DNA of 64,000 nt from a virus. The DNA lies in the IMG/VR virus record IMGVR_UViG_3300046804_000544, positions 1 through 64,000 of that record. One strand, given 5' to 3'. The position numbers were made by a program, and so were the translations under genes. This document shows, one piece after another, positions 6,595-54,349 of this stretch; the stretch's first letter is position 1, and every line of letters begins with the position of its first letter. The notes under the pieces are model-generated. The model was not told the origin of the DNA, made no database searches, and saw nothing but the letters and a program-made list of their open reading frames with translations.

Positions 6595-6602
6595 TATTTA
6601 TC
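6595..6602 (-). promoter_or_regulatory. Late promoter motif (GATAAATA)
   Basis: 5 nt before ATG at 6589; follows the tube-gene terminator. Confidence 0.6.
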
Positions 6603-19619: not shown

Positions 19620-21356
19620 TTACACAATTGAGCTCATACCAAAGTACATTAAGGCTAGGCCGCTAAGTTCTGCGTAGCGTTTTGTACTGGCTTGACTTCG
19701 ATTGCTATTCCAACGTTCGTCGGACGTGGTTAAAGTTGCATTTGTAAAGCGGCCTGTTACTGCTGTTGTAGCACCAATTGTTACATTATCAATACTGCCT
19801 GTTGCTGCTGGATTGATTGTTAACACACCGCTAGTCGGACTAAAGTTAATGCTTTGATTAGTAACAGCAGTAATATTTCCTACAAAATTAGTAGTTTGCC
19901 CGTTTGTGCCAAGGGTAAGGGTTCCGTTAGGAGCAACAGTAACAGTTCCGCCAGCTATTGTTGTAGGGCCAACGCCGCCTCCACTGCCGGCTGTTCCTAC
20001 ATTTCCGTAAAAATTTGTACCTATACAATAAGGATAAGCTGGGTTTCCACTACTGTCAACCGTCATAAAATATGCATAAGTACCGTTAGGATAATCTGGA
20101 GTTACACAGTAACGTCCATTTCTGTAGTCTAGATCGCCGCCACCGGTAAACGAATAATCTTGTGTAAAAATACCTAATGGATATGTTGAATTAACTGGCT
20201 GTGCATTAAATCCAGTTCTAGTGGTATTAAGTGTATAACCAGTTAGCATTCTACGAACTGGACTATATCTGTTAGTGGCTGTTCCGTACCCAAACGGCCC
20301 GTATATAGGATATCCGTCTAGTGCATATCCTAAGATTTTACTATGTCCGTCGCTATGAGTTAAACTACCGCCTAGATAAAGTATAAAGTTAGCATCTGCA
20401 ACACCAGTAGTGGCTGTTGCACCAGTTGTATGGCCAACTCCAGAAGTCCATGCAGTAGCAAAACTGTAGTCTGTATAAATGTATTGTCCTGATACAGTTC
20501 GGCCTCCTGCTAGATCGTGATAATAATTGTATCCTAATACAGTAGCAGATCTGTAACTGGCATTATAATTCCATCCTGACAACGGAATACTATAACTTGC
20601 CGGGGCATCATTAGTGGCTGCTGCAAAAATAGCTACACCATTTAGCGCATATCCAATTATTCCTGGAGTTACTAATTGATTTGATCCTGCTACGTTAGTA
20701 CCAGCTCTAAGAATAAAATTAGTATTGTAATTTTGTACTGTTGGAAGATTCAGAGTTGCGCCATAACTGTGATATGGAAATCCTGATGCTTGCAGTGTGT
20801 AACGACCTGTAGCTGCTGTCCAAAAAGATGATTGAGATGGTCTACTACCGCCCAATTGAAAATTAGCAGCGCCTGTATTAAGGTCTACACTACTAACAGT
20901 ACCGCTAGATCCAATCAGCACAGGACCTGTTGGATTAATTCTCATCAATCCCGTAGGAACCATATCAACACTAGCTATACCATTTGATGTAAGTGTTGTA
21001 AATGTTCCCGGCTTTGGTGTAGTTGCACCTATAGCAATATTGTCAAGGGTGCCTGTTGTAGTAGGATTAATGACTGCACTGGTTCCGCCGGTTAAGCTAA
21101 AATTTCCAGTTAAGTTTACAGGACCATTAACAGTTAAACTAGTTAACGTTCCAGGTATGTTAGTAACAGTTGAAGCTAAACTAGTTGCTGTTAGTAACGG
21201 TTGTCCATTATAACTAATGTACGAATTTGCTGTTAGCTCAATACGGTTACCCATAACGGTAACCGTTTTACTCATAAGGTTGCCTTCAACGTCTACAATA
21301 AAATATGGACTGATAAATCCTGTTGACGATCGAAATAATTTAGCAGACGTTCCCAT
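19620..21356 (-). CDS. Fibre-like structural protein with degenerate YHYH domain
   Basis: GYALNGVAIF, HSKILGYALDGYPIYGPFGY, GDLDYRNGRYCVTPDYPNGTYAYF match YHYH-family motifs. Confidence 0.7.
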   Translation of the reverse strand: MGTSAKLFRSSTGFISPYFIVDVEGNLMSKTVTVMGNRIELTANSYISYNGQPLLTATSLASTVTNIPGTLTSLTVNGPVNLTGNFSLTGGTSAVINPTTTGTLDNIAIGATTPKPGTFTTLTSNGIASVDMVPTGLMRINPTGPVLIGSSGTVSSVDLNTGAANFQLGGSRPSQSSFWTAATGRYTLQASGFPYHSYGATLNLPTVQNYNTNFILRAGTNVAGSNQLVTPGIIGYALNGVAIFAAATNDAPASYSIPLSGWNYNASYRSATVLGYNYYHDLAGGRTVSGQYIYTDYSFATAWTSGVGHTTGATATTGVADANFILYLGGSLTHSDGHSKILGYALDGYPIYGPFGYGTATNRYSPVRRMLTGYTLNTTRTGFNAQPVNSTYPLGIFTQDYSFTGGGDLDYRNGRYCVTPDYPNGTYAYFMTVDSSGNPAYPYCIGTNFYGNVGTAGSGGGVGPTTIAGGTVTVAPNGTLTLGTNGQTTNFVGNITAVTNQSINFSPTSGVLTINPAATGSIDNVTIGATTAVTGRFTNATLTTSDERWNSNRSQASTKRYAELSGLALMYFGMSSIV

Positions 21357-21365
21357 ATCTTCTTA

Positions 21366-21893
21366 TTAGCTTAAAGCTACTCCGTATGCAGCAGATAGTG
21401 CAACAGCATATCCTTTAGTTATAGCACTAGAATTGTTAGTTTGTTGTAGGCTAGTAATAGTAACGTTAGTAAATCTACCAGTACTTGGTGTTGTAACGCC
21501 CACAGAAGTATTATCAATAGATCCTGTTGTATTTGGCGATATTGTTACTGTACCACTTCCGCTAGGACTTATTGTTACACTGGCATTATTTGGACTCAGT
21601 GTAACTGTAGAACTATTAGCCGTTAGTGTTGTAAATGTTCCTTGACGTGGGGTAGTTTGTCCTATTAAAGTATTATCCAATGTTCCTGGAGTAGTAGGAT
21701 TTAGTACTGCAAAATTTGTAACATTTAAATTTGCAACAGTAAAACTACTGTTGGTATTGATAGTCAATGTATTTGTAGTTGAGTTAGTTACTAAACTAAT
21801 GCCTCCAGAGCTGGTTAAATTTAGTGTATTACTATTAGAATTTAAATTAATTGTACTTTGTCCAGGTACTGCTATGTAAGTATATCCGTTCAT
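21366..21893 (-). CDS. Short fibre-like structural protein
   Basis: 175 aa, Thr/Ser/Asn-rich, two GxxDNxxIGxTTP repeats. Confidence 0.7.
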   Translation of the reverse strand: MNGYTYIAVPGQSTINLNSNSNTLNLTSSGGISLVTNSTTNTLTINTNSSFTVANLNVTNFAVLNPTTPGTLDNTLIGQTTPRQGTFTTLTANSSTVTLSPNNASVTISPSGSGTVTISPNTTGSIDNTSVGVTTPSTGRFTNVTITSLQQTNNSSAITKGYAVALSAAYGVALS

Positions 21894-22930
21894 TAAATTG
21901 CTCCTTGCAATGCTACCGCTCTGTATTCGCTTGTCCTCAGTAATTGATTATTGTTAGATGAGTTATTATCTAAAGTTAGTGAGGTAAATCTACCAGCTGC
22001 CGGTGTAGTTTGTCCTATTATTACATTGTTAATAGTTCCAGTAACAGTTGGACTTGATGTAAATGTTCCTGTGCCGGTTGGTGAAATAATTACATTTGCG
22101 TTAGTAGGGGTAAAAGTAACAACATTAAGAGCTGTTAATTGTAAAAATCTGCCGGCAGCTGGTGTAGTTTGTCCTATATTGATATTGTCAATTGTATTAC
22201 CTACAGAAGAATTAATTACAATAGAATTAGTAACTGTTAGATAGGGTGTAGCAGTTAAGGCTAGATTTACAGTTTTTGTTGTATTATTGGTAGTAACGGT
22301 AATAGAATTATCAGTGTTTTGAACATTAAGAGTATCCATAATATAGCCAGCTGCTAAATTAGTTTGGGCTGTTGCCGTGATTGTCTTAATATTTGAAACT
22401 ACTATGCCGCCGTCATCGTTAATGTTTAAAAATCCGTCGGGTAAATTTGTATTTTTTAAATTTAATAGTATGCCGTCTTCGCCGCCAGCACTAGAGCTTT
22501 CCCCGTTGACTGTAGGAATTTTAACAGGTTCTATTCTCTCAGCATAGTTTGCTCTGTAAATTAATTTTATACCAGTTAGTAATGTAACACCATCTGACTG
22601 ATATAGTGGGTTTGCAATGAGAGATACTTTTGAGTTATCTACAACTGCTGTAAATCTAACTAGATCTTTACCTAAGTTACTACGCCCGTAAATCTGTATC
22701 GACGCTTGCCCCACCCGAGCAGTTAGTAATATCTTTAAATGCTCGACGTCATTAACACCGTATTCTATAGCCACTTCATAATCTGCACTGGTAAATTCGC
22801 CAACTGGCCATGTATCTACTACAGTATTAGGTGTAATATATACAACAGTGCCGCGATAAGAAAGTCCAGCAGTACTGATAAATTTTATAGTATTGTGGAA
22901 TCCAGTTTTAAAGTAGTCAGAAAAATTCAT
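21893..22930 (-). CDS. Fibre-like structural protein
   Basis: 345 aa, two IxNxxIGQTTPAAGRF repeats; AATAAATA motif upstream at 22951-22958. Confidence 0.7.
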   Translation of the reverse strand: MNFSDYFKTGFHNTIKFISTAGLSYRGTVVYITPNTVVDTWPVGEFTSADYEVAIEYGVNDVEHLKILLTARVGQASIQIYGRSNLGKDLVRFTAVVDNSKVSLIANPLYQSDGVTLLTGIKLIYRANYAERIEPVKIPTVNGESSSAGGEDGILLNLKNTNLPDGFLNINDDGGIVVSNIKTITATAQTNLAAGYIMDTLNVQNTDNSITVTTNNTTKTVNLALTATPYLTVTNSIVINSSVGNTIDNINIGQTTPAAGRFLQLTALNVVTFTPTNANVIISPTGTGTFTSSPTVTGTINNVIIGQTTPAAGRFTSLTLDNNSSNNNQLLRTSEYRAVALQGAI

Positions 22931-22971
22931 GAGTTTTAGCCGTTATTCTTTATTTATTCTAACCAAATGTA

Positions 22972-23000
22972 TTGCTATTTTTGAAAAAAAATGCTAAATT
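22972..23000 (+). promoter_or_regulatory. Sigma70-type extended -10 promoter for the GmhB-like gene
   Basis: TTGCTA, 17 nt, TAAATT preceded by TG; predicted +1 falls at or next to the ATG at 23006. Confidence 0.45.
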
Positions 23001-23005
23001 ACAGT

Positions 23006-23635
23006 ATGAACCTACGCAAACTTTTAGACGAAGAATTAGATCTTTCAGAACTGCAAAAAATACCATTAACTGCTAGTAGCTATACAAAGCCAGTAGTTGG
23101 AATCAGCAGAGATGGTATTATAAATGTTACTAAAATAGATCATGTTAAACATCCTGACGAATTTGAGCCTATTCAGGGGGCCGCTGAAGCTGTAGCTGAA
23201 ATTAGAAAAAAAGGCTACAGAATTATTATTTTATCTAATCAATTTGGCATTAGTGAACAGCGTATGACTCCTGTGCAAGTAGACACAGTAAATCAACGAA
23301 TGTTAGACCTTTTTGGTCAAGCAGGTTGTCCTAGCATTGACGGCATGTACTATAGTACAACTAAAATGAAGGAAGATATTTACGCATTGCCCAACATTGG
23401 CATGTTTCAACGAGCAGAAAGAGAACATAATCTACGATTTAAAGAAGGCTGGTTTGTTGGTGATAAAATCAGCGACATGAAAGGCGCCGAAAACATTGGA
23501 GCAAAACCAATACTAATTAAAACTGGTGCTTGGGAGGAAACTGCTAAAAAGTTAGAAACTTTTGCCAATAGAGATTTGCGTAAAAAAACTAAGATATTTG
23601 ATACGTTGATGGATTTTGCAAAGAGTCTAGAGTAA
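23006..23635 (+). CDS. gmhB-like: GmhB/HisB-like HAD phosphatase homologue with degenerate active site
   Basis: VVGISRDGIIN, FEPIQGAAEA, ILSNQFGI, PNIGMF, FVGDKISDMKGA. Start placed at 23006, not 22991, based on promoter position. Confidence 0.8.
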   Translation: MNLRKLLDEELDLSELQKIPLTASSYTKPVVGISRDGIINVTKIDHVKHPDEFEPIQGAAEAVAEIRKKGYRIIILSNQFGISEQRMTPVQVDTVNQRMLDLFGQAGCPSIDGMYYSTTKMKEDIYALPNIGMFQRAEREHNLRFKEGWFVGDKISDMKGAENIGAKPILIKTGAWEETAKKLETFANRDLRKKTKIFDTLMDFAKSLE

Positions 23636-24431
23636 CTGCTATTTCATCAAGATCAAAATCATAATAAAAATACTCTGTACCAAATCGATTACATTTGACT
23701 TCCCAAATGCCTTTAATACAAACACCGCTTTGCGTTAATGTCGGCCCAGTATAGCTTTCATTGCCTTCCATATCTAAGCAGTTATCTACAACAAAAAAAG
23801 GTAACAATTGCCTAGAGCCTCTTCGAATCCATGATTCTACCCACATAGATTCGATTTCATCATCGGTTGAACTTTTTCCTCTAAGGGCATTAGTTGGGTG
23901 AATAAAAACTTTGGCACCAGCGTGCCAAAGTTTTTCACATAAACCCCCTTGAGAGCTGTTATGCCCATATAGGTCTGCACAAATTACACCCCCTATAGGT
24001 ATAACGTAATTGTCATATGGTAAAAGCACACCAGTTACTGTTTCCCATTCTTTAACTCCTATTTTTACGTCGTACGGAGTTAAGACACATTTATCTATAT
24101 CCCCTATAAATTTACCTTTTTTATCATAACAGCGTATTTGATTATGTATTGTACTTCTATGTTTATTATTGTTAAACCATAAGGTACCTAGGCATAATCC
24201 AACACTTTTTGATCCAGCATACTTAACTACATCTTCTAAACAATTAGATAATTTTTCAGGATCGTCTGCAAATTCTTTTGTGTATCCGCTCAATGCTGCT
24301 TCTGGTGTTACTAGATAATCTACACAATTTTCACTTGCCCAATCTATGGCTTTTTTAATTGTGTTAGTATTCTTTAGAGCATCTGTTGTTACAGGAATTT
24401 GTGCTCCGCCAAATCGTATTGTGCCACTCAT
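23589..24431 (-). CDS. Carbon-nitrogen hydrolase (nitrilase superfamily)
   Basis: Glu-Lys-Cys triad motifs LVTPEAALSGY, DIDKCVLTPYD, GVICADLY. Confidence 0.85.
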   Translation of the reverse strand: MSGTIRFGGAQIPVTTDALKNTNTIKKAIDWASENCVDYLVTPEAALSGYTKEFADDPEKLSNCLEDVVKYAGSKSVGLCLGTLWFNNNKHRSTIHNQIRCYDKKGKFIGDIDKCVLTPYDVKIGVKEWETVTGVLLPYDNYVIPIGGVICADLYGHNSSQGGLCEKLWHAGAKVFIHPTNALRGKSSTDDEIESMWVESWIRRGSRQLLPFFVVDNCLDMEGNESYTGPTLTQSGVCIKGIWEVKCNRFGTEYFYYDFDLDEIAVTLDSLQNPSTYQIS

Positions 24432-24432
24432 A

Positions 24433-26232
24433 TTAATCTTCGTTTAGTTTTCTAATTAGTTTACCGTATTCAGGAAGATACAAATATTCTATTTCACTTC
24501 TAGCTATAGTTTCTACTGCATCAGCTAGTGTTTCAACTAACGGATCTCCGCCTAAGTTAAAACTGGTATTAAACAACACTGGAACATTGGTCTGCTTGTA
24601 AAACTCTTGAATTAAATTGTAAAAATGTTTATTCTGTTCTGCTGTAACTGTTTGAATTCTGCATGTACCGTCAACATGAATAATACTAGGTATTTTTTCT
24701 GCTACACCAGATTGACAATTAACAGCATACATCATACTAGGACTTTCTTCCATGCCTCTAAGATCAAACCATTCATGCACATGCTCTTTTAGAATTGATC
24801 CTGCAAAAGGTCGGAAATATTCACGTCTTTTAACAGTATTGACAAAATCTTTACCGTCTTCGAAAGTAGGATCAAATAAAATACTACGATTGCCTAACGC
24901 TCTTGGGCCGTTTTCACTGCCGCCTTGATACATTGCTACAATATTTTTATTTCGTAATAGGTCTACAATATCTTCATAAGTAGCATCAGCATACTCAGCA
25001 TCATATAAAGCACAAACTTCTTCAATTTGTTCTAATGTGTAGGTATATGTAGGTCCTAAATATAAATTATGTTTAAAGTCAGTGACAGTTGTGTCTTGAG
25101 TTAGGGATCTATGTAGTATCATGGCTGCACCCATAGCTGTACCGGCATCATTACTAATTGGTTCTACATAAAAATTAATGCCTCTCTTGTTTAATTCAGT
25201 GAGATAATAATAATTAGCTACACAATTAAGTCCGTAACCCCCGCTCATAACTACATTGTTGCAACCTGACAATTCTACAGCTTTAATAATTAAATTAAGA
25301 ACTTGTTCTTGAGTTTGAGTTTGTACAGCATACGCTAAATCTCTTCTATTATCGAGCGAAGTTAAATCTTCTGCATTTCGATCTGCTAGATATTCATATA
25401 GCTGTTCGTTAATAACGGCACCATTGGGATATCGTGGAACAATTAAGTTTCTATTTGTTGCTGGTTCGATGCCAGTAGTGTCAAATAGTTTAGGTATACG
25501 ATCATTTGATTTTCCGTAGGGAAATAATCCCATAGTTTTTCCTGCTTCGATAGCAGGAAATCCACAATATTCAGTTACTGCCTCATATGCCTTAACGATG
25601 CCCGCTGTATCAGTAATTCTAGCTATATGAAACCCGTTTTCGCCGTACATATCACTAGGTGTTTTTTTAGCTATTCCGCCTGGCCTTGCTTCTCTAATAC
25701 CAATGTGTTTATATAGCGTTGTAAAATTATCGGGATAGCTGCATTTAAAAATTGTTTCAGTTTCCCAACCTGTTACAGACTCGCCTGCAAAGTTTAAATT
25801 TAAAAATGTACCGGCGCCGTCTACAATTACAGATACTGCTTCTTGGAAACCGCTACGATAAAATGCACAGGCAGCATGTAACTTATGATGAAAATGGCTA
25901 AAATCAATTACTTGAGGATGATTTCTTAAATCAGCTTTGTGATTAATCAACCCAAATTTTCTTGCTAGACCTGTGTAAATATCTTCGCCACTAAAATCAA
26001 CACCACCGCTGGTGTCTTTTGGAGTAGTGTGTGCTATAACAAGATAATCAATCTTTTTAGTATATTCTAAAATTTTAGCAATGCTGGCATAGGGTCCGCC
26101 GTCGTATTTTCGACGAGTAATTCGTTCTTCTTCTATACTAAAGACAATATCACCGTCTTTTAATAAACAAACACCTGCATTGTGTCCTCGGGTAATTCCT
26201 GCAATCCATCCGCTTTTCTTTACGTCAGTCAT
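24433..26232 (-). CDS. Carbamoyltransferase (NodU/CmcH/TobZ family)
   Basis: IEEERITRRKY, HHKLHAACAF, IVDGAG, AGKTMGL, GGYGLNCVAN, NDAGTAMGAA, GPRALGNRSIL, NTSFN. Confidence 0.93.
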   Translation of the reverse strand: MTDVKKSGWIAGITRGHNAGVCLLKDGDIVFSIEEERITRRKYDGGPYASIAKILEYTKKIDYLVIAHTTPKDTSGGVDFSGEDIYTGLARKFGLINHKADLRNHPQVIDFSHFHHKLHAACAFYRSGFQEAVSVIVDGAGTFLNLNFAGESVTGWETETIFKCSYPDNFTTLYKHIGIREARPGGIAKKTPSDMYGENGFHIARITDTAGIVKAYEAVTEYCGFPAIEAGKTMGLFPYGKSNDRIPKLFDTTGIEPATNRNLIVPRYPNGAVINEQLYEYLADRNAEDLTSLDNRRDLAYAVQTQTQEQVLNLIIKAVELSGCNNVVMSGGYGLNCVANYYYLTELNKRGINFYVEPISNDAGTAMGAAMILHRSLTQDTTVTDFKHNLYLGPTYTYTLEQIEEVCALYDAEYADATYEDIVDLLRNKNIVAMYQGGSENGPRALGNRSILFDPTFEDGKDFVNTVKRREYFRPFAGSILKEHVHEWFDLRGMEESPSMMYAVNCQSGVAEKIPSIIHVDGTCRIQTVTAEQNKHFYNLIQEFYKQTNVPVLFNTSFNLGGDPLVETLADAVETIARSEIEYLYLPEYGKLIRKLNED

Positions 26233-27191
26233 TTGAGATCCTTATTTTTTACAAAATTTGTATACAGTTCGGTAATTGAATCTACAATTACATTTTCTAT
26301 TTTATCATTCATGGCCATAATGCCATCATTATTCATATCTGCATATTCGTCTGGGGCTATTCTAATAGGGCTATAAATTCTTACACCTTCTCCCATATCT
26401 AAAACTTTGAAATTTTCACAGCTGGGGTAAGAAACATTAATAGGAAAGGTTGAGCCCATTACAGCTACGGTTGGTTTATTTAGAGCATAAGCAATATGTT
26501 GAGCAACACTATCACAGGTTAAAACAATGTCTACTGATTTAATCAGTCCAGCCCATTGTCTAATAGGAACATTTGGAGGTATTGCCACTGGGTCTTTACA
26601 GCCCAGTGCTTGAAAGTTTAAAGGCAATTCAGTCATAACAATAACTGCAAATTCTTTTTGCAACTTGTTAATCAAACTAATCACGTTTCCAATTTCAAAA
26701 CTACGACCAGATGGATCAGTTACAATGTCGCCTTTCATAGAAACACCACGACCAAATGGTTGAAACAGTAAAGTTTTATTTTTTCCTGTTTTAGATACAA
26801 CATCTTTAATACCAATTTTTCCGTTGGTAATTTCGTCTTGGGTTAATTTAATCGTTGGTCTAGGTAATTCTCTAACACCTTTATTATTAATTTCAATATC
26901 AAAGGCCTGACTTAATGAACATTTTTGATTATAGTATTCCCAGACTCTATACGGTTCAGGAGTGACAATATCCATGTGTACTAATCTATCATGAAATAAA
27001 TTTTTGTGCCAATTATCGTAAGTTTTGTGATGTAGTTTAGGATGTGCTTTAAAAAAATCTGTGCCGCCTTCGCAAATTATAAGAAAATTTTCATCTGGAT
27101 TTTCTTCTTGGTACAGTTCAAGGGCAGGTACTGAGCAAATAACTCTGCCAGCTCCTCCATTGATAAAAAATGCTTTTGCTCGTTTGGTCAT
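26229..27191 (-). CDS. Glycosyltransferase, GT9 (ADP-heptose:LPS heptosyltransferase)-like
   Basis: IRQWAGLIKSVDIVLTCDSVAQHIAYALNKPTVAVMGST matches the GT9 C-terminal signature; N-terminal GGAGRVICSVPAL. Confidence 0.75.
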   Translation of the reverse strand: MTKRAKAFFINGGAGRVICSVPALELYQEENPDENFLIICEGGTDFFKAHPKLHHKTYDNWHKNLFHDRLVHMDIVTPEPYRVWEYYNQKCSLSQAFDIEINNKGVRELPRPTIKLTQDEITNGKIGIKDVVSKTGKNKTLLFQPFGRGVSMKGDIVTDPSGRSFEIGNVISLINKLQKEFAVIVMTELPLNFQALGCKDPVAIPPNVPIRQWAGLIKSVDIVLTCDSVAQHIAYALNKPTVAVMGSTFPINVSYPSCENFKVLDMGEGVRIYSPIRIAPDEYADMNNDGIMAMNDKIENVIVDSITELYTNFVKNKDLK

Positions 27192-27218
27192 GAAAACGCC
27201 TCAACTAATTGTTTACGC

Positions 27219-27247
27219 ATTATATATGCGTTTTATCAATTAGTCAA
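27219..27247 (-). promoter_or_regulatory. Near-consensus sigma70 promoter for the GT9-carbamoyltransferase-hydrolase operon
   Basis: TTGACT (27247-27242), 17 nt, TATAAT (27224-27219); the -10 sits in a CGCAT-N5-ATGCG palindrome. Confidence 0.8.
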
Positions 27248-27271
27248 GGCATTTATTGAGCAAACTTGTAA

Positions 27272-28297
27272 TTAATGTGCGTGGTAGTTTTCGCTATCTG
27301 GATCGTCGTGATCTGGAATTCCGTCACCGTCTGAGTCTTCTGGGTGGCTGTATCCACATTCTTCACACCATTTAGCGTGGTGTGCATCGTGTACAGCAGG
27401 ATCATTTAGATCAACATCTGGATCTGCTTCTTTGCATTGCTCACAGTGCTCTAAATAGTGTGAAACCTTATGAGCATGTGTGCATGGGTTGATTTGCATG
27501 ACAGGCCATGGCTCTATTGCTTCAGTTTCTGCAACAGTGTTTGGGCAAACTGCTTCGATTACATCCGGATGATCAGCACATTCATGTTCAACTGCACCCC
27601 ACTTGTATGTGCGTTCTACACTTTTTGGAGGATTAGGTACACCATCTGGTAAACCAATTGGATGTGTATTATCTAACGTAACTGTATCTGGACTTGGCCA
27701 AGTTAACTTCCAAGGATGATTTTTACATACTTCGTTGTCTAATAACTCTTGAACAATCTGTATACAATACTCAATTTTTGCTTCTTCTCTAGTAGTTAAT
27801 AGATCAGTTCTTAAGCGTCTTTTTAAATCAGCAATATGTGCCTTACCACTTCTTACCAGTTGATCCCATTGACTGTCTAATTTAAACCAGGGATAAGTTA
27901 CTCGTCCAAAACGATCAATGGTAACATCTTGCATACTGTAAGTATGATCCAATGTTGGATGCTCAAATCTTTGATATACAACATTGTATTTTTCATAAAC
28001 TGTTTCAACTATAGTATCTGTTGCATGATCTTCATGATTACAAATCATAGCCATTAATGCAATATGGTTAGGATTGTGTGAGTGTAGATAAATCCATTGC
28101 ACTTCGTCGTTGCTGTTATTAGTACCGCCATGACAAGCATATCCGTCGTGATCAAATTCTACTCCACGATTTGGTTTGCGTGTCTGTCGATCTACTCCGA
28201 CTTTAATATCGTGCGGCCCTCTATATTCACTTTCAACCCATTTCCAACCACTGGTTAAATCGTTATATTCTACTGGGGCTTTATACTTAAATTTCAT
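27272..28297 (-). CDS. Putative fibre-assembly chaperone with His/Cys/Asp-rich C-terminal tail
   Basis: Central W..L....LxWPxP segment recalls tail-fibre chaperones; C-terminus has HCEQC, WCEEC, many His and DSDGDGIPDHDDPD. Confidence 0.5.
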   Translation of the reverse strand: MKFKYKAPVEYNDLTSGWKWVESEYRGPHDIKVGVDRQTRKPNRGVEFDHDGYACHGGTNNSNDEVQWIYLHSHNPNHIALMAMICNHEDHATDTIVETVYEKYNVVYQRFEHPTLDHTYSMQDVTIDRFGRVTYPWFKLDSQWDQLVRSGKAHIADLKRRLRTDLLTTREEAKIEYCIQIVQELLDNEVCKNHPWKLTWPSPDTVTLDNTHPIGLPDGVPNPPKSVERTYKWGAVEHECADHPDVIEAVCPNTVAETEAIEPWPVMQINPCTHAHKVSHYLEHCEQCKEADPDVDLNDPAVHDAHHAKWCEECGYSHPEDSDGDGIPDHDDPDSENYHAH

Positions 28298-28317
28298 TTA
28301 ATTCTCCTGAACCTTTA

Positions 28318-29355
28318 TTATGAGTAACTAATCAATACTAATCCTCTGCCGCCGCAACTACCCAAACAGCAGCCGCCTCCAAGTCCGCTACCGCCAGCAC
28401 TTTTGCCGCCACCGCCGGGTGTATTTCCATTAACACCACCGTAGTTCCAGCACATAATCATACAGTTACAGCAGTTATTACAGCTACCCTGCGCTGCAAA
28501 CATGCCGCAATCACAACACTGTGCGCCACCGCCAGCATAGGCCATGCCGCCGTTGCCAAATGCAGCATGACAGTAGGCAGCACCAGCATTTCCATAACCA
28601 TTACCTGCTGTAGTCTTGTTGTCTTTTCCGCCACCACGGGGGTGATCAACACCAAATGCTACAAATTGTGCCGGATTACTAAATCCGCAGGCGCCTTTAA
28701 CAAAGAAATTAAAGCATTGGCAACAATTATATGTGCATCCAGTGTAACTAGTACCTTGTCTGAAACAAAATGCTGTATTTCTTTCAAAATAATTTCGGCA
28801 ATCCGGTCTATCATGACACCATTGACGTTGGCAATCAAATAGACCATTGTAAAAACAATCCCAGCAGCAAGCAAAAGACAGTGGGCTGTATTGAGAATTC
28901 CAATCCCAAGGCCATACACAGGCGTTTTGGTCAAACCAGCAACAAGTACTGCCTCCGCAGGCATTATCAGTTTGCCATAGCCAACCTGTTGTACAATTAC
29001 AGACTCTTGATATTTGTCCGCCGCTGCCTGCAAACCAACCCATGCCGCCTGAATTACAGCAATCGCAACTGCAAACACAAACACACAGTATATGATTAGT
29101 GCCCGATGTTGTACACACTGCCCATCCGTAGCTGCCTCCTTGCCCTCCAAATGGCGAGCCGCTACAGCAGCAACCACCAGCACCGCCACCACCTTGTCCC
29201 CACATTTCAATTACGAAACAGGTAGCAGTAGAAGGTATACAAACACAACATGCGTTAGTACCTTGAATTGCAAAGCAGGCAGTAGCACGGTGTGTAGGTC
29301 TACACCATATTCTTGATCCACCTCCAGCAGTAAATAGATTTGTAATTAATCCCAT
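28318..29355 (-). CDS. Cys/Gly-rich adhesin-like protein A
   Basis: 345 aa, about 46 Cys by hand count; IEMWGQGGGGAGG, PGGGG and GGRGLVLISY glycine-rich motifs. Confidence 0.75.
   Translation of the reverse strand: MGLITNLFTAGGGSRIWCRPTHRATACFAIQGTNACCVCIPSTATCFVIEMWGQGGGGAGGCCCSGSPFGGQGGSYGWAVCTTSGTNHILCVCVCSCDCCNSGGMGWFAGSGGQISRVCNCTTGWLWQTDNACGGSTCCWFDQNACVWPWDWNSQYSPLSFACCWDCFYNGLFDCQRQWCHDRPDCRNYFERNTAFCFRQGTSYTGCTYNCCQCFNFFVKGACGFSNPAQFVAFGVDHPRGGGKDNKTTAGNGYGNAGAAYCHAAFGNGGMAYAGGGAQCCDCGMFAAQGSCNNCCNCMIMCWNYGGVNGNTPGGGGKSAGGSGLGGGCCLGSCGGRGLVLISYS
29168..29229. repeat. 62-nt perfect direct repeat, copy 1
   Basis: Identical to 30183-30244 by base-by-base comparison. Confidence 0.9.
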
Positions 29356-29356
29356 C

Positions 29357-30382
29357 TTAACACCAACTTATTAAAATTAATCCAGAACCACCTTGTCCTG
29401 GTTGTGTCCATGCAGTGCCGCCACCAGATGTTTTGCCACCACCGCCGGGGAAATATCCTCCAATGGCCCAACACTGAAAACAGCACCAGCCGCAGTTGTT
29501 GTACCATGATTGATCACCGCCAGCATAGGCTGCACCACCTACACCCATTCCGCCACCGCACTGACTGTTTGGTATTTGGCACATGCCGGTACTGCCTGAT
29601 ATAAAATTAAATGATCCCATAGGAGTAGCCGTTGGATCAGGATCTGACCAGCCGCAAGCGCCTAACCATACATAAGGACTTGAGAAGCAGGTACAGCAGC
29701 AACGATCAAACGGTGCATCATGCCTAATCCATTTCTTAACTGGTTCGCTGGTATTATTTCCGCCAAATATTGCTGCATTTACACAAACGCAACCACATTG
29801 TGCTAGCTGATCGCAACACAATACTGGCTGTTGATCATCAGTGGCTACTACTGAACCTTGACTTGACTGTGCTAGTTCTTTGGAGTAATCCATATAGAAT
29901 CTCCAAACATTAGAAACATATTTTCCTGCACAGCAACAGCAGCTTCCGCCCCAGAAACAGCACCACACGCCCGTTGCGCCGCCGCACACGCACCAGGTCG
30001 ATAATCCACCGCCTTGGCATTGGACTACTCTTGAAAATTGTCCGTGGTATGCCTGACAAATTGAACATTGAGAGCAGATACAGTAGCAGTTACATGCACA
30101 TAGTATATGATTAACACCTGATGTTGTACAGGTCACCCAACCATATGCGCCGCCTTGGCCGCCGTAAGGGCCGTTACCACAACAGCAACCACCAGCACCG
30201 CCACCACCTTGTCCCCACATTTCAATTACGAAACAGGTAGCAGTCGAAGGGACGCATACGCAACAGGCTCCGCCGCAGGCAATCCACATACAACAGGTAG
30301 GCTTGTGTGCAGGTCTACACCAATAGGTATTAGGCCTACCGCCGCCTGCTTTACCTCCAATATATCCAAATACTGATGCCAT
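29357..30382 (-). CDS. Cys/Gly-rich adhesin-like protein B (paralogue of A)
   Basis: 341 aa, about 45 Cys by hand count; same glycine-rich scaffold as A. Confidence 0.75.
   Translation of the reverse strand: MASVFGYIGGKAGGGRPNTYWCRPAHKPTCCMWIACGGACCVCVPSTATCFVIEMWGQGGGGAGGCCCGNGPYGGQGGAYGWVTCTTSGVNHILCACNCYCICSQCSICQAYHGQFSRVVQCQGGGLSTWCVCGGATGVWCCFWGGSCCCCAGKYVSNVWRFYMDYSKELAQSSQGSVVATDDQQPVLCCDQLAQCGCVCVNAAIFGGNNTSEPVKKWIRHDAPFDRCCCTCFSSPYVWLGACGWSDPDPTATPMGSFNFISGSTGMCQIPNSQCGGGMGVGGAAYAGGDQSWYNNCGWCCFQCWAIGGYFPGGGGKTSGGGTAWTQPGQGGSGLILISWC
30183..30244. repeat. 62-nt perfect direct repeat, copy 2
   Basis: Encodes TATCFVIEMWGQGGGGAGGCC; identical to 29168-29229. Confidence 0.9.
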
Positions 30383-30396
30383 TTATTTCTTATCCT

Positions 30397-30747
30397 TTAG
30401 GTTATCTGTGCCACTACCCAGTCATTTCGTCCAGCAGAATATTGTAATCTTATTAACGCTCTAGCTAAATTAATTGTTAAATTATCATTAAATCCGCCTA
30501 CTGTAGATCCATCACCGCTGGGATTTACAATACATAGATTACTATCAAATGTTCCAGCTACATCAAAAATGTCTACAAAATTTCCAGCAGATGGATTAGA
30601 AGGGAGAGTCAATGTTACTGCGCCACTAGTAGTGTTAACATAGTTTACGCTGTTAAAAGTCAATGTGGTATTTGAAGTGATATCTTGTACAGTACCAGCA
30701 GCGGTTGGAACGTATCTAAATTGCCCTTGACCGATAAATCTTCCCAT
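30397..30747 (-). CDS. Small tail-fibre domain protein
   Basis: VNTTSGAVTLTLPSNPSAGNFVDIFD motif of the kind seen in T4-like long-fibre proximal domains. Confidence 0.6.
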   Translation of the reverse strand: MGRFIGQGQFRYVPTAAGTVQDITSNTTLTFNSVNYVNTTSGAVTLTLPSNPSAGNFVDIFDVAGTFDSNLCIVNPSGDGSTVGGFNDNLTINLARALIRLQYSAGRNDWVVAQIT

Positions 30748-30758
30748 TTCTTTAATCC

Positions 30759-31079
30759 TTAGACTGTGCTAGTTTCAATACCATATGCAACAGCATTTAC
30801 ACCAGTTGCACTTGAATACACTACAATTAATTTTCCTGCATCTACAACAATACCTGTTCTTTCAAGAACACCTCTTCCTGGAATTGTAGTATCAAATTCT
30901 AAATAGCTGTTATCTGTAACGCCTGCACTGGTAGTAAGACCTAATCTTACTGTAACAGATGTAGCGTTTCTATTACAAATAGTAACAGATGCCACAGCAA
31001 ATGTATTAGTTGGGCAGGTATACAAGGTCGTGTTTGTTGTTGCTGCTAAATCTTGTATTCCTAATCTTCCTGTTGGCAT
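30759..31079 (-). CDS. Small beta-rich fibre-associated protein (paralogue family, copy 1)
   Basis: 106 aa; similar to 41775-42104 and 55056-55361. Confidence 0.7.
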   Translation of the reverse strand: MPTGRLGIQDLAATTNTTLYTCPTNTFAVASVTICNRNATSVTVRLGLTTSAGVTDNSYLEFDTTIPGRGVLERTGIVVDAGKLIVVYSSATGVNAVAYGIETSTV

Positions 31080-31093
31080 TCTTTAATCTCCGT

Positions 31094-34000
31094 TTATGGC
31101 TTTAAATAATAGTTTAACGCTAGCGGACTACCATCTACACCATTTTTAAAATACACTTTGTTTTTAAAATTAATCTGCGTATTGGCTGTATTGCTAATGT
31201 TAGCTCCACTAATATTTATCAATCCTGCTGTTAGACTATTTACGTTCAATGTACTAGTTCCGCCGCCAATTTGGCTATTAATATAAGTTCTAATAGCTTT
31301 TTGTGTAGGCACAATACTGTCGCTATTTGCTGCAAAAGTACCATCTGTACTAAATTGTGTAATTGTAGTATTTGAACTACCTAAGCTGATAGCACCTAGT
31401 GTCAAGCTCTGTAAGCCTGTTAAGTTAAATGCGTTAGCATTTAGTGTAGCAACACCTGTACTTTGTTGAACGCTGAACAAGTTACCAACGTTAAAGTTAC
31501 CGTCTTGGTCGGTACTGGTAAAGAATACTCGTCCACCACCAAATTCTTTAGTCTGTTTTGTAACGTCTGCCGCCTGTGTTGGCTGATTTGGATAGTTAGT
31601 TGTTGTGGTATTACCAGTACCAATACTTAAGAAATCATGACCGGTTAGACGCACTTGGCTGTAGTTGATTCTTATAGTAATGCCTGCGGCGTGTGCAGGA
31701 GCCAGTGCTATGGTCATGCTAGGACTAATTTGTAGTGTAGCTGTTAAAGCACCACTGTAGAATGTTGTATTAGCAGCAATTGTTTGGCTATTATTAATGG
31801 TCCAACTTAGTCCTGAACCTCCAGTAATTTGTGTGCCGTTAGTTACATACGTACCACTGATATACTGTCCTATAGCAATAGTACCCGATGTAACTGAAGC
31901 AACAGTTAATGTAGTTCCACTAATTGACCCTACAAATACAGCACTGGATCCAACTTGATTGCTAACAGATACCAGTTTATAAACAGTACTGTCGCCAGCA
32001 AATACTACGTTTGCACCTGCTGTAGGTGGATTAGTTAAATTATTAATATTGAGATATTGACCAGTTTGGAACTGATCCATATACCCGCCACTGGTTGTGG
32101 TAATTGTTGTTGTCGCTGAACTATAACCAGTACCTTTATTGCTAAAGTTAGGCTGTGCCAATGCACCGTTACCGGTACGCACAGTCCAGGTAGCTGCTAC
32201 TGTTACATTAGGATCAGTAATAGTCATTGTTGGGGCAACGGTATATCCTGATCCTGATTCAGTTAGTCTAAATGCTGCTACTTGGTTGCTGGCTATAACT
32301 GCTCGGGCCTGCGCTCTTTCAAAGTTAGGAACGCTAGCTGAAGTAGTAGTGCTAGTATGGAACATCCATATTGGAGTGTTACTTGGATTACCAAATTGTA
32401 CTGTGGTCCAGGTTGACGATGCTGATAAGTTAGCACTTACCCAGTTTTCACCGTCGTAACTCCATGTTACAGCCTGTGTTGTTGCACCACCAAATCCCTG
32501 TATGGCTATAAACACACCTTGACCGTAGCGCACTTCTTTCCACGAACCTGCACTTGGTAAACCCACATCACTGTAAGCTACTGCCGGACCTCTTGCTACC
32601 CAATTAATACCGTCTGTTGATAGTGCATAAGTTGCAGAACCGTTGGCTACTGCAACAAATAAATTATTACCGTAAGTTATACTGGTCCATGCTTGGCTAA
32701 CTGGTAATGTAGCAGCCGACCAAGTAGTGCCGTTATCTGTTGAGTATGCAGCAGCAGTGCCTGGTGTTCCAGCACCGGCAATGGCTACCCATTTGCCTCC
32801 GCCGTATGCTATACTTGTCCAGGTGTTACTGCTAGGCAATGCGCCGCCTGCTGCCCATGTTGATCCATTAGTACTGATCATTGTTGCGGTAGCGCCTGAT
32901 GATACTGCAATAAATCTGCTGTTTCCGTAAGCTACACCAGTCCAGTTTTGGTTTGTTGTTGTACCAGTATTCCATGTTGTACCATTACTACTCCATGCTG
33001 ATGTAGTACCGTTACCAACTGCTACATAATAAGTTGTTCCACTAATTGCACCAGCAGCGGCTGCTTGTACTGTAAATGTTGGGAAACCTGTAGCTAGTGT
33101 AGTTGTTGTTCCGTTTGTACTGTAGTTTGCTACACCACCAGTTCCTACCGTAACAAAATAACCGTTGGCGTATGCACTGGCTACGGTGTTTCCGTTATTT
33201 GTTCTAGCAGTTGCACTAAATGCGGTAGTACTAAAACTAATTCTAGGTTCAACAATATAAGCTGTTGTTCCATCTAATGCCGCAGCCCTAGTGGTGCCTG
33301 GAACTGCATGATCCCATCCAGCTGCATTTACACTCATTGGGCCGCCACCGGTGTTAGATCCCACTGTAAATGTTCCGCCGCCTTGTGCTGAACTAATACT
33401 GAATTGTGTTCCGCTGAATCCAGCTACAACATAATATATAGTACCAATAACAATGTTACTACCAGTTAATGTTGTGCCAGAAAATACAACAGGCATACCT
33501 GTATAGAATCCAGTTGTACTACTAACTGTAATTAAGTTTGATCCTGTTGCTGTTACTGATAGTGCAGTAAAACTTTCTTTAGCAACACTAGCTACTTTTA
33601 GTGTAGGATTGTATGCAGCAATGTATCCAAACTGACCGGCACCTGCACCGCTTTGAATTGTAACTCTAACACCTTGGTAACTGGCTGCTGTACCTGTAGT
33701 ATCAGAAGCAGCCAGTGTGATTTGTGTTGTATTTCCGCTTTGTGCATTGCTACCGGCAAAAACATACCCAGAGCCTGCTGTTAGCAATCTAACTTCAAAA
33801 ACTGCTTGATCTCTAGTGTCAATAATTGCATCGTGTGCTGCACCGGCGCCACCGCTAAACGTATATGTAGTGCCAGAGCCTGTGTAGTTTGTACCGGCAT
33901 TACTGTATTCTAATCTTAAAATTGCACTACCGTTGGTTAAAGTGTATCCAACTTGTGCCTGACCGGCACGATTATTCACAGCAGCATAAATTGGTGATTC

Positions 34001-36265
34001 TAAGAAACGTACACCTTCACTTACAGAACCATACAAACCATAACTGTTATTTCCGTTAGTAGCACGAATCTTACCGCCATTTTCTGCTAGGTAACCAATG
34101 TGGTTATAGTATGTAAAGATAGAAACTAATTCTGCTAGTCCCATGTTAGTGACCCATGCGCCGATACCGTCACTTAAAATATTTGTAAAGTCGTTAGCAA
34201 CAATAGATTTATTACCACCGTTGTGTATATTGCCGTCTACCTTCATTCCGACACAACCAGTGCCAAATGTAGTCACGTTTTGTATGTACGGTGATTTTGA
34301 AGTAATCCAAACAGTAGAATCAGCTGGGCCGGAGCCAGGATCTAAACTAACATACGCACCAGCACTTGGACGTAGTGTACCAAAAGGTGTTACTAAAGTA
34401 TATGTTGTAGTTGAGATAGCTGCTGTTGACAATGTAACATAAATGCCGTTAAGTGCATTAGCATAGGTGGTAGCTACTGTAAATTGAGTGGTGCTAGTAA
34501 CTAGACCAACATAATAAGTACCTGCACTAAGTCCGCCGCCGCCTGTACCAGAAACAGTAAATGTAAAACCAGTAACAAAATTAGCTGTACTAGCAACTGT
34601 TACTAATCCACCAGCACCAGTATTACCTTGTGTAGATGCGGTAGTATTTGTAATACTACCTGAAGCTACTGTAGAAGACAGTGTACCACTTAGTCCCTGC
34701 AGTGTCATATTACGAATAGTAGATGCATTTCGTACATAGAACATGTTTGCTGTTGCTACTGTAGGTTGAACGATTACTGTACGTAATTCGTCTCCGACTA
34801 AGCTAACGTTAGCAGGAACTGTTATAGGACAAACTTCAGTGTAAGTACCAGTTTTGATAAAAATAGTAGATCCGCTAATTGCCTGACCGCAGGCATATTT
34901 AATTGTAGCAAAAGGTTTATCTAATGTGTTACCGTAACCGGCAGCATCTGTACCACTAGGTGCAACATAGTAAACTTTACTGATAGCACCAAAAGTTGCC
35001 CATGCCGGTGCTGTTCCGCTGACTTTTAAAATTTGGCCGTCTGTGCCGATACCTAATCGTGTTGGTCCACCGCCGCCATAATAGAAAATATCACCTTGTG
35101 TAGTCAATACGTTTGATTCTGTACCAGCTACCAATTGATTCCAGTATGTACCTGCAACATCTGTTGCTGGATCATTAACTCCAGTTGAAGATGTATGTGC
35201 TAATATACAAACATAACTGTTACTGTTCTGTTTGACCGAATCACCTGCTACATAGGCAGTAGCGGTAGCCCAGTTACCTCTCCAACGGAATCCAGGATTT
35301 AATAAAGACCAGTAGGTTGCATTGGGAGGTGTAAAGTTTGTATGATCTAAAATGCATAGATATGTATAACCACCTAGGGTTACAACATTACCTACTTTAT
35401 AAGCAGTAGCTCCACTCCAAGCACCTTGAAAACTAAACCCGGTACTTAATAGTGCCCAGTCAGATGGGTTTGTAGTAGGAGTTTTATTAGTGTTATTTGT
35501 CTTAGCAGAATAAGCATAGCCGCCATAAGTTACTACATCGCCTAATTGATAAATTCCAACAGATGTCCATGTGCTTTCAAATTGTAAACCTTCTACAAAT
35601 GCTACCCAATAACCTGAAGTTACTTGATCAGTAATGAAACTGGCTGTTGAAACGTGTATTGTTACGCAGATCCATAAACCTGCACCATATTTTACAACAT
35701 CGTTAATTTTGTATCTAGTACCGCTGGCGGTCCATGTTCCTTTGTAGTCAAAACTTTGATTTACAATGTCCCATTTTGCCTGATCTGCTTCTAGGCCACC
35801 GCCTACCAGTGTAGCACTGGCGTTACTAGTGTGTGCTGTATTACAACGATAAACAGTTCCACCATATTTTACAACATCTGCAACTTTGTAAACTGTGCTA
35901 GTTGCCCAATTTCCCAACCAGTTAAATGCCGTAGCAAACTGATCCCATTTAGATTGATCTAATTCTAATGTGCCTTGACTAGTGTGCCCAGTATTACAAA
36001 CATAAACAGTTCCGCCATATTTTACAGTGTCACCTACTTTATAAAATGTAGTAGCTGCCCAGTTACCGAGCCAAGCCTGACCATCTGAAGCTAGATTCCA
36101 ATATGTTGCTAGATCTGTATAAAAATTTGAAGTGCTGGTATGCCCTGCTGTACATATATAAGTTTTTCCGCCGTAACGAATTACGTCGTCTTTAATATAG
36201 GTTGTTGCTGCTGCCCAGGTGCTTTTCCAGACAAATCTAATTCTACCTAGCTTAAACTCTGCCAT
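31094..36265 (-). CDS. Giant tailspike/fibre: 7 CBM5/12-like repeats, beta-helix, BNR-like propeller repeats
   Basis: 1723 aa; seven WxGxW..YxxxDVVxYGG repeats, [16 protein letters not shown] pectin-lyase-like region, WxxxxYGxxxFVAV repeats. Confidence 0.8.
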
Positions 36266-36294: not shown

Positions 36295-36302
36295 TATTTA
36301 TG
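36295..36302 (-). promoter_or_regulatory. Late promoter motif (CATAAATA)
   Basis: Intergenic, upstream of a GGAG SD and the ATG at 36265. Confidence 0.55.
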
Positions 36303-48144: not shown

Positions 48145-48152
48145 TATTTATC
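48145..48152 (-). promoter_or_regulatory. Late promoter motif (GATAAATA)
   Basis: Intergenic, 19 nt before the ATG at 48125. Confidence 0.55.
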
Positions 48153-54341: not shown

Positions 54342-54349
54342 TATTTATC
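54342..54349 (-). promoter_or_regulatory. Late promoter motif (GATAAATA)
   Basis: Intergenic, upstream of a GGAG SD and the ATG at 54321. Confidence 0.55.

Follow-up and report, generated by a model that had tools for sequence, protein, structure and literature searches.

What do sugar-modifying enzymes do among the tail-fibre genes of a phage, and on what would they act? The question is raised by the IMG/VR virus record IMGVR_UViG_3300046804_000544, whose first 64,000 nucleotides (nt), here called the window, hold between positions 22,972 and 30,382 a GT9-like glycosyltransferase, a carbamoyltransferase and a C-N hydrolase next to two cysteine-rich proteins and a histidine-rich, acidic partner. 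The region is the fibre-tip end of a phage host-recognition cluster, fused to a small glycan-tailoring unit, and this identity of the module is secure. For the function of the unit we give a probability of roughly 0.4 to the reading that the phage decorates its own Cys-rich receptor-binding tips with a carbamoylated heptose-type sugar by way of a phage-only GT9 branch; that the phage glycosylates and carbamoylates its own fibre tips, which are the predicted target, we consider not quite an even bet. The features on which the argument is built are as follows (aa, amino acids).

29357-30382, minus strand: fibre-tip paralogue 1 (341 aa, 13.2% Cys, 18.8% Gly)
28318-29355, minus strand: fibre-tip paralogue 2 (345 aa, 13.3% Cys, 19.1% Gly)
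27272-28297, minus strand: fibre-tip partner (7.6% His, 17.9% Asp+Glu, 3.2% Cys)
27219-27247, minus strand: candidate sigma70-type promoter TTGACT-17-TATAAT, an 11/12 match, in the 80-nt gap before the GT9-like gene
26229-27191, minus strand: GT9-fold glycosyltransferase-like protein (320 aa; PF01075, phrog_8954)
24433-26232, minus strand: TobZ/NodU-type O-carbamoyltransferase (599 aa; phrog_1601, E 2e-170)
23589-24431, minus strand: nitrilase-superfamily (C-N hydrolase) enzyme (280 aa; PF00795, phrog_36475)
22991-23635, plus strand: GmhB-derived HAD protein (NF006506, E 2e-32; probable start 23006)

Relatives of the GT9-like protein are encoded by 441 IMG/VR contigs, and those fetched loci that had flanks of 6 kb or more in both directions were scored for their neighbours. 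All 49 of these loci combine a Cys/Gly-rich tip with an acidic partner and a carbamoyltransferase inside 9 kb, and the pairing of enzymes with Cys-rich adhesins to which the initial annotation had pointed is thus seen in every scorable relative; heptose-pathway genes are present in only 32 of the loci and are hence optional. Many of the 49 are close mutual relatives, so that the count overstates the number of independent events. The linkage spans identities from 83% down to 35% and holds in AG-345-O18 and AG-345-P14 (35-37% identical), is kept where the enzyme pair and the tip string have been inverted onto opposite strands (for example in loci L021, L044, L057 and L074), and is also found in a reverse search starting from the tips. 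No locus came out of a scan with P0219, a distant member. Close GT9-like relatives are confined, in a set of 185,579 species genomes, to six contigs, all from metagenome-assembled genomes (MAGs) of scattered taxonomy; five of these contigs are long enough, all five carry module genes and three the whole module. The contigs PBPT01000016.1 (L100, 335 kb) and PBPT01000082.1 (L103, 153 kb), both labelled Neomarinimicrobiota, as well as L101, labelled Methanobacteriota, and L099, labelled Chitinophagales, are probably mis-binned phage DNA, given the fibre-tip module on them; the 335-kb PBPT01000016.1 may be a near-complete giant phage genome.

These data bear on the view that the enzymes have no functional link with the tips, being auxiliary or "stuffer" genes in a hypervariable fibre island or modifiers of something else, such as DNA, which phage GT-B enzymes can glycosylate. 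"Stuffer DNA" has been raised as a possibility for such genes (PMC3037559), and genes are known to be gained often in this island (PMC7029224). However, the linkage in 49 of 49 loci persists across that range of identity and across inversions, purifying selection acts even on the disabled HAD gene described below, and both catalytic motifs and promoter signals are conserved. On the strength of the linkage we rate DNA glycosylation and "stuffer DNA" low, and the view as a whole very improbable.

The proteins at the receptor end of this linkage have a recognizable architecture. The two tip paralogues are 39% identical to each other and belong to one family of 84 metagenome clusters, characterized by an invariant CxCxCxCxC strand and GGGG motifs and matching no Pfam family save for one HAD match on a weak alignment. 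Paralogue 2 was modelled with AlphaFold2 (AF2) from 53 sequences, with a mean predicted local distance difference test (pLDDT) of 64; the beta core (residues 20-140) and the C-terminus are confident (pLDDT 75-96), and the variable stretches 141-210, 228-264 and 285-302 fall below 50. The model matches the fibre protein gp24 of the cyanophage Pam3 (7ypx) with a Z score of 17.4, a root-mean-square deviation of 2.9 Å, 185 aligned residues and 20% identity (7yfw, Z 16.8), the Bxb1 tail tip with Z 12.3 and the ALK/LTK glycine-rich domain with Z about 7. The window protein has no Pfam match itself; PF21722 is matched by 6 of the 53 family members (best E 3e-4) and carried by 23 of 30 Atlas neighbours of the tip. 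A tblastn search of the Cys-rich protein against 50,697 phage records gave no match, the low-complexity filter probably being the cause. On this model the tips share their fold, TNF-like plus glycine-rich, with the Pam3-type receptor-binding fibre, a unit that in Pam3 forms the receptor-binding tip and is followed by a chaperone gene (PMC9608196). The initial annotation had called these genes adhesin-like, with about 13% Cys; their composition (13.3% and 13.2%) bears this out, and the fold match supports "adhesin-like" at the level of fold.

The neighbouring partner is less easily classified. Its N-terminal ~200 aa show homology (hhalign 99.2%, E 1e-19) to the family of acidic partners in S-CAM1-type modules, and its C-terminal ~140 aa form a His/Asp/Cys-rich tail ending in a thrombospondin-type-3-like DGDGIPD motif. 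PF16778 (Phage_tail_APC) is matched by four of nine members of the S-CAM1-type family (best E 3e-10), and the window partner has no direct match in Pfam and its clade none to PF16778; an Atlas search gave scores of 0.76 or lower and weak TSP_3 leads. Thus, of the "metal-rich chaperone-like" label first given to this gene, the His-rich and acidic composition holds, whereas the chaperone-like part comes indirectly, through the homologous family with its PF16778 matches; a protein that stays on the virion is an equally possible role. The C-terminal extensions differ among the partners of the clade, which suggests a surface-exposed, exchangeable end. Homologues of the partner (L085:11025-12257, L086:11005-12312 and L084:11044-12120) have C-terminal matches to cadherin-like, Big_9 and collagen-repeat domains.

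What, then, are the enzymes? By sequence, the GT9-like protein matches PF01075 with 30.4 bits against a cut-off of 22, over residues 200-252 alone (53 residues), and the NCBIfam heptosyltransferase equivalogs with 15-22 bits against cut-offs of 135-569. Its AF2 model (pLDDT 96.7) is closest to the Veillonella GT9 structure 3tov (Z 24.6), followed by WaaF (22.3), TibC (20.7) and WaaC (19.8); eleven GT9-fold entries lie at Z 19-25, compared with at most 12.3 for other GT-B families, Foldseek gives E 3e-10, and identity to the solved GT9 structures is 9-15%. The donor motif CDSVAQH aligns with NDSGLMH of WaaF and VDTGLSH of WaaC, and the residues of the D227-x4-H232 pair within it are invariant across 60 family sequences. 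The predicted fold cannot distinguish a lipid-linked from a protein acceptor. Among the GT9-fold matches is also the non-enzymatic chloroplast protein PnsB1 (Z 19.6), and the first N-terminal loop of the family reads GGAGR.

The carbamoyltransferase combines a Kae1-like N-terminal domain (PF02543, E 2e-27, 96.8 bits, cut-off 24) with a YrdC-like C-terminal domain (PF16861, E 1e-56, 191.6 bits, cut-off 27), both above cut-off. Against the PDB it matches 7xb6 (E 7e-57), TobZ (E 2e-39) and also NovN and GdmN, and with 136.5 bits against a cut-off of 1000 at the NodU equivalog NF041651 it is a family member and not NodU itself. By these matches it is clearly classed as a TobZ/NovN/GdmN-type O-carbamoyltransferase; it also matches the HypF Kae1-like subdomain weakly (PF22521, E 6e-4; TIGR00143, E 3e-5). 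The C-N hydrolase, a divergent member of its superfamily, matches PF00795 with 30 bits (cut-off 23.2), and 10 paralogues taken from four relatives all keep Glu44 (TPE), Lys114 (NK) and Cys151 (ICAD); from these motifs we infer that they form the catalytic triad. The closest relatives carry two or three tandem copies of this gene, and the family profile has weak nitrilase and NAD-synthetase matches in the PDB. Matches of the profile to GH97 were taken as spurious, as they cover a short N-terminal stretch. The GT9-like and carbamoyltransferase genes overlap by 4 nt and the carbamoyltransferase and C-N hydrolase genes are 1 nt apart; with each product above its Pfam cut-off, the coupled operon of glycosyltransferase, NodU-family carbamoyltransferase and C-N hydrolase described in the initial annotation stands.

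The weak HypF match and the PnsB1 relationship would both fit another interpretation, namely that the chemistry on the Cys-rich tips is not glycan chemistry at all (S-carbamoylation, as by HypF on HypE, or an S-linked modification), or that the GT9-fold protein is a non-catalytic assembly factor, PnsB1 providing a case of a purely structural GT9 fold. The GGAGR loop, which differs from what we take to be the GT9 catalytic motif, points the same way, and so does a more distant gene arrangement. In the unrelated N4-like vibriophages SBP1 and D505 (Vibrio schitoviruses; L095:6989-10510 and L107:7001-13017), a GT9-like homologue of 244-245 aa and 25-29% identity directly precedes a large tail protein with 7-9 Cys per 100 aa at residues 100-400; the GT9-like gene thus adjoins a Cys-rich tail protein even in phages with no carbamoyltransferase nearby. 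Yet the putative donor-binding Asp-x4-His is invariant in 60 members, the closest solved carbamoyltransferases all act on hydroxyls of small molecules or sugars, and in many relatives a heptose-nucleotide pathway lies beside the pair. We consider this interpretation improbable.

Facing the operon is the GmhB-like gene, which converges on the C-N hydrolase gene with a 47-nt overlap. Its product scores 112 bits against NF006506, for which the cut-off is 178, and it has lost the HAD nucleophile Asp, the motif-III Lys and the Zn-binding Cys/His insert of GmhB: in alignments to 4pnh and 2gmw it reads ISRDG against LDRDG and ALPNIGM against RKPxPGM, so that Ser replaces the nucleophile and Leu the lysine, and there is one Cys in the whole protein. 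In seven clade members Ser, Thr or Ala occupies the nucleophile position and Leu or Phe that of the lysine, and Asp and Lys are kept in two outgroup phages; the degenerate GmhB reported in the initial annotation is a feature fixed in these members. Together with pairwise ratios of nonsynonymous to synonymous substitution (dN/dS) of 0.04-0.23, these fixed substitutions point to a maintained pseudo-phosphatase and not a decaying gene.

The promoter of the enzyme unit had been read as a sign of early remodelling of host lipopolysaccharide (LPS). The near-perfect sigma70 site before the operon (TTGACT-17-TATAAT, 11/12) is confirmed; sites with at least 11 of 12 matches number 3 in the window against 3.5 in shuffles, and a similar sigma70-type site precedes the dNMP-kinase gene. 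The elements GCCTTGACT-N12-GCATATATAATG are kept at the same distance from the ATG in loci L084, L085 and L087, in which the flanking intergenic DNA has diverged. The structural genes are marked otherwise: of the late-type motif ATAAATA there are 12 copies on the minus (coding) strand and one on the plus strand, most of them in short gaps that precede structural genes. The strict T4 late consensus TATAAATA is rarer than expected (2 matches against 9.6). It is the relaxed ATAAATA, not the strict TATAAATA, that appears to mark gene starts. Further ATAAATA sites on the minus strand lie at 48145-48151, 54342-54348, 22951-22957 and 6595-6601. Across 58 distinct upstream regions of relatives, a late-type [CA]TAAATA precedes the GT9-like gene in 38, often after a terminator hairpin, a sigma70 match of at least 10/12 in 16, and both signals in 6. 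By these motifs the enzymes consistently form their own transcription unit and the timing of its expression is not conserved, which weakens the argument from sigma70 to early LPS remodelling; as a general statement it does not hold. The late-type motif before the gene in most relatives would suit co-expression with virion genes.

Promoter timing is one of several points on which the published reading of such clusters has to be weighed. In that reading the target of the enzymes is a glycan of the host envelope (LPS core, O-chain or some other surface polysaccharide), whose remodelling would block superinfection or the re-adsorption of progeny, and the enzymes lie beside the tips because a receptor-binding protein and receptor-masking chemistry must match. 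It is the interpretation given for the host-recognition glycosyltransferases of pelagimyophages and cyanomyophages (PMC7029224) and for the "LPS clusters" of P-SSM2 and S-SSM7 (PMC3037559). Most GT9 enzymes whose function is known are heptosyltransferases of the LPS core, carbamoyl-heptose is a feature of the LPS core (PMC8005017), and the sigma70-type promoter conserved in the clade of the window fits early expression. However, with 38 of 58 upstream regions late-type, an outer-membrane glycan could hardly be rebuilt in the short time that late expression leaves; the identity of the GT9-like protein to WaaC and WaaF is no more than 9-15%, and its scores are far under every NCBIfam heptosyltransferase cut-off; its close relatives were found only in the phage fibre module and never in cellular LPS loci; and the genes invariably next to it encode the tips and their partner, whereas sugar-pathway or export genes are not invariant there. 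Host-glycan remodelling is the main rival of own-tip decoration; we regard it as unlikely, although less so than the two alternatives already described.

Decoration of the phage's own tips is favoured because the enzymes have the tips and the partner as invariant neighbours, because this GT9 branch is found only there, because the protein heptosyltransferase TibC is a structural neighbour, and because late-type promoters are common. The linkage across relatives and inversions, the Pam3-like fold of the tip and the GT9-like gene directly before a Cys-rich tail protein in the vibriophages also speak for it. In the sequence of events that we propose, the GT9-like enzyme would, in the infected cell, use a nucleotide sugar as donor and attach its heptose-type sugar to the fibre-tip proteins of the phage, much as TibC and AAH heptosylate autotransporter adhesins, and the host would supply the donor, since the contig is without a heptose pathway. 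The carbamoyltransferase would then O-carbamoylate that sugar with carbamoyl phosphate and ATP, on the model of WapO, the putative carbamoyltransferase to which the O-carbamoyl group on HepII of the Pseudomonas LPS core has been assigned (PMC8005017). The C-N hydrolase may carry out an amide-editing step of unspecified kind, the dead GmhB may bind a sugar phosphate and leave it intact, and the finished decoration would adjust how the receptor-binding tips bind, how stable they are or how far they are shielded.

Several considerations weigh against own-tip decoration. The published reading is modification of the host O-chain (PMC7029224), no glycoproteomic data for any carrier phage were found in the literature, and no sequence or model analysis here reveals the acceptor. 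Linkage inside a hypervariable island is correlative evidence. The enzyme unit of this phage carries a sigma70-type promoter and is presumably early. The GT9 fold can be non-catalytic, as the model's similarity to PnsB1 illustrates, and the GGAGR loop stands where GT9 enzymes such as WaaC presumably carry the catalytic Asp. Lastly, GmhA (SIS_2), an adenylyltransferase (CTP_transf_like) and a kinase (PfkB) were not found in the 132.9-kb contig, which is ~38% of the genome, and with the GmhB-like protein lacking its nucleophile the donor sugar is uncertain for this phage; the heptose donor proposed in the initial annotation has better support in the relatives, through the pathway genes in 32 of 49 loci.

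The window is the first 64 kb of a linear viral contig with a CheckV completeness of 38% and T4-like gene content, from an uncultured giant aquatic phage. Terminase, tail tube, sheath and gp13-like adaptor genes lie at 1-13 kb (the sheath and neck genes at 7-13 kb), the major head protein and portal at 57-63 kb, and between them, at 16-56 kb, stands a 40-kb block of fibre and baseplate-wedge-like genes; the genes flanking the cassette are fibre or virion genes. The closest isolate matches of the window proteins are marine cyanomyoviruses, and megablast of the region against the 50,697 phage records gave no match. A cyanophage label was considered and not adopted: psbA was not found by a Photo_RC search of the contig, which covers about 38% of the genome, and for that reason we do not call the host a cyanobacterium. 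Upstream of the tips the module begins with the following features.

36295-36301, minus strand: late-type motif ATAAATA in a 52-nt gap before the long fibre gene (putative function)
31094-36265, minus strand: long tail-fibre protein, first gene of the module (1723 aa; phrog_9851 tail fiber protein, E 7e-203)
30759-31079, minus strand: small fibre-associated protein of 106 aa (phrog_11338 tail fiber protein, E 1e-9)
30397-30747, minus strand: small fibre-associated protein of 116 aa (phrog_31104 and phrog_9648, tail; position kept in relatives)

The 1723-aa protein shares 37% identity with the fibre genes with which this module begins in S-CAM1 and P-SSM2, and the 106-aa protein 40-45% with the genes in the corresponding position in those phages; the long fibre gene, the two small fibre proteins, the two Cys/Gly-rich tips and the partner form a tight late-type gene string. 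Motifs of the IGQTTPxxGRF type are repeated in three fibre-like open reading frames (ORFs) 3' of the cassette (21366-22930 and 19620-21356, minus strand), which are almost without Cys or charged residues. Beyond the window, the same contig has a single ORF of 4795 aa (82,694-97,081, plus strand) and an operon-like run of at least six radical S-adenosylmethionine (radical-SAM) enzymes at ~108,800-122,300 (plus strand; loci L097 and L098), two of them with SPASM-domain matches; one weak Fer4_12 match may be a seventh enzyme, and a methyltransferase, a protein resembling Asp/Asn beta-hydroxylases and several unknown ORFs are encoded in the run as well. A link of this island to the Cys-rich tips, for example through thioether cross-links, is conceivable.

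To our knowledge, the cyanophage "LPS genes" have been without a known function since 2005. If own-tip decoration is correct, it would be the first case of heptosylation of a phage tail fibre, and host recognition in many aquatic T4-like phages would depend on a virus-made glycan. Fibre tips decide which cells can be infected, and if they are enzymatically modified, host range is set by more than the fibre sequence and predictions from sequence alone miss a layer. For the study of enzyme evolution, the disabled yet conserved GmhB and the GT9 branch confined to phages deserve attention, and the invariant core of tip, partner, GT9-like protein and carbamoyltransferase is a small, directly testable unit.

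How this module compares with known systems is best seen from its nearest relatives in isolates. Glycosyltransferases are part of the host recognition cluster (HRC) of pelagimyophages and cyanomyophages (PMC7029224), and the "LPS gene" cassette T4-GC 297-308 is known from P-SSM2, S-SSM7 and S-CAM1 (PMC3037559, PMC7029224). The initial annotation had proposed a novel system, which cannot be upheld as such, since T4-like marine phages have already been described as carrying glycosyltransferase and LPS-type genes in their fibre gene regions (PMC7029224, PMC3037559). The window agrees with the HRC description, having a hypervariable fibre island with glycosyltransferase/LPS-type genes in the structural region, between the neck/sheath and head genes; VrlC itself was not identified. 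It shares with T4-GC 297-308 the order of a fibre gene, two small genes, Cys-rich genes, an acidic gene, GC302 (GT9-like) and GC303 (carbamoyltransferase), its GT9-like protein being 62% identical to that of S-CAM1 and its carbamoyltransferase 62% identical to that of S-SSM7. In contrast to the isolates, GC304-308 (adenylyltransferase, kinase, GmhA, cupin and epimerase) were not found in this contig, a C-N hydrolase and a nucleophile-less GmhB stand in their place, and the enzyme unit has a sigma70-type and not a late-type promoter. The carbamoyltransferase is already annotated in isolates, whereas the GT9-like and Cys-rich genes are annotated there as hypothetical, and the invariant core of tip, partner, GT9-like protein and carbamoyltransferase has not been singled out. 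The literature searched contained neither this four-part core, the fold of the Cys-rich genes or the GT9 assignment of T4-GC 302, nor the variants with a C-N hydrolase, a dead GmhB and a sigma70-type promoter.

Outside this group the likenesses are partial. With the tail fibre gp24 of Pam3 and its chaperone gp25 (PDB 7ypx, 7yfw) the module shares, on the evidence of the model, the TNF-like plus glycine-rich receptor-binding fold, together with the order of a tip gene followed by a putative assembly-partner gene; the tips described here differ in having 13% Cys and an invariant CxCxCxCxC strand, and in being separate proteins, two paralogues downstream of a 1723-aa fibre and followed by tailoring enzymes. 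In mycobacteriophages, virion proteins (capsid and tail tube) are glycosylated by an enzyme that the phage itself encodes beside its structural genes, with a glycosyltransferase family and targets different from those of this module and no carbamoylation. WaaC and WaaF share the GT9 fold (Z 19.8-22.3) and the aligned donor motif, and in Pseudomonas they occur with WapO, which gives a GT9 enzyme and a NodU-family carbamoyltransferase in one locus as here (PMC8005017); the phage protein scores 22 bits against an NCBIfam equivalog cut-off of 185, and it belongs to a phage fibre module, not to a core-oligosaccharide locus. TibC and AAH (PDB 4rap, 4rb4) share the GT9 fold (Z 20.7 for the model) at ~10% identity; the phage protein is without their N-terminal extension and aligns to TibC residues 91-395 only. 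As GT9 enzymes that heptosylate an adhesin protein in the cytoplasm, they offer by analogy the precedent for what the GT9-like protein of this phage may do to its fibre tips.

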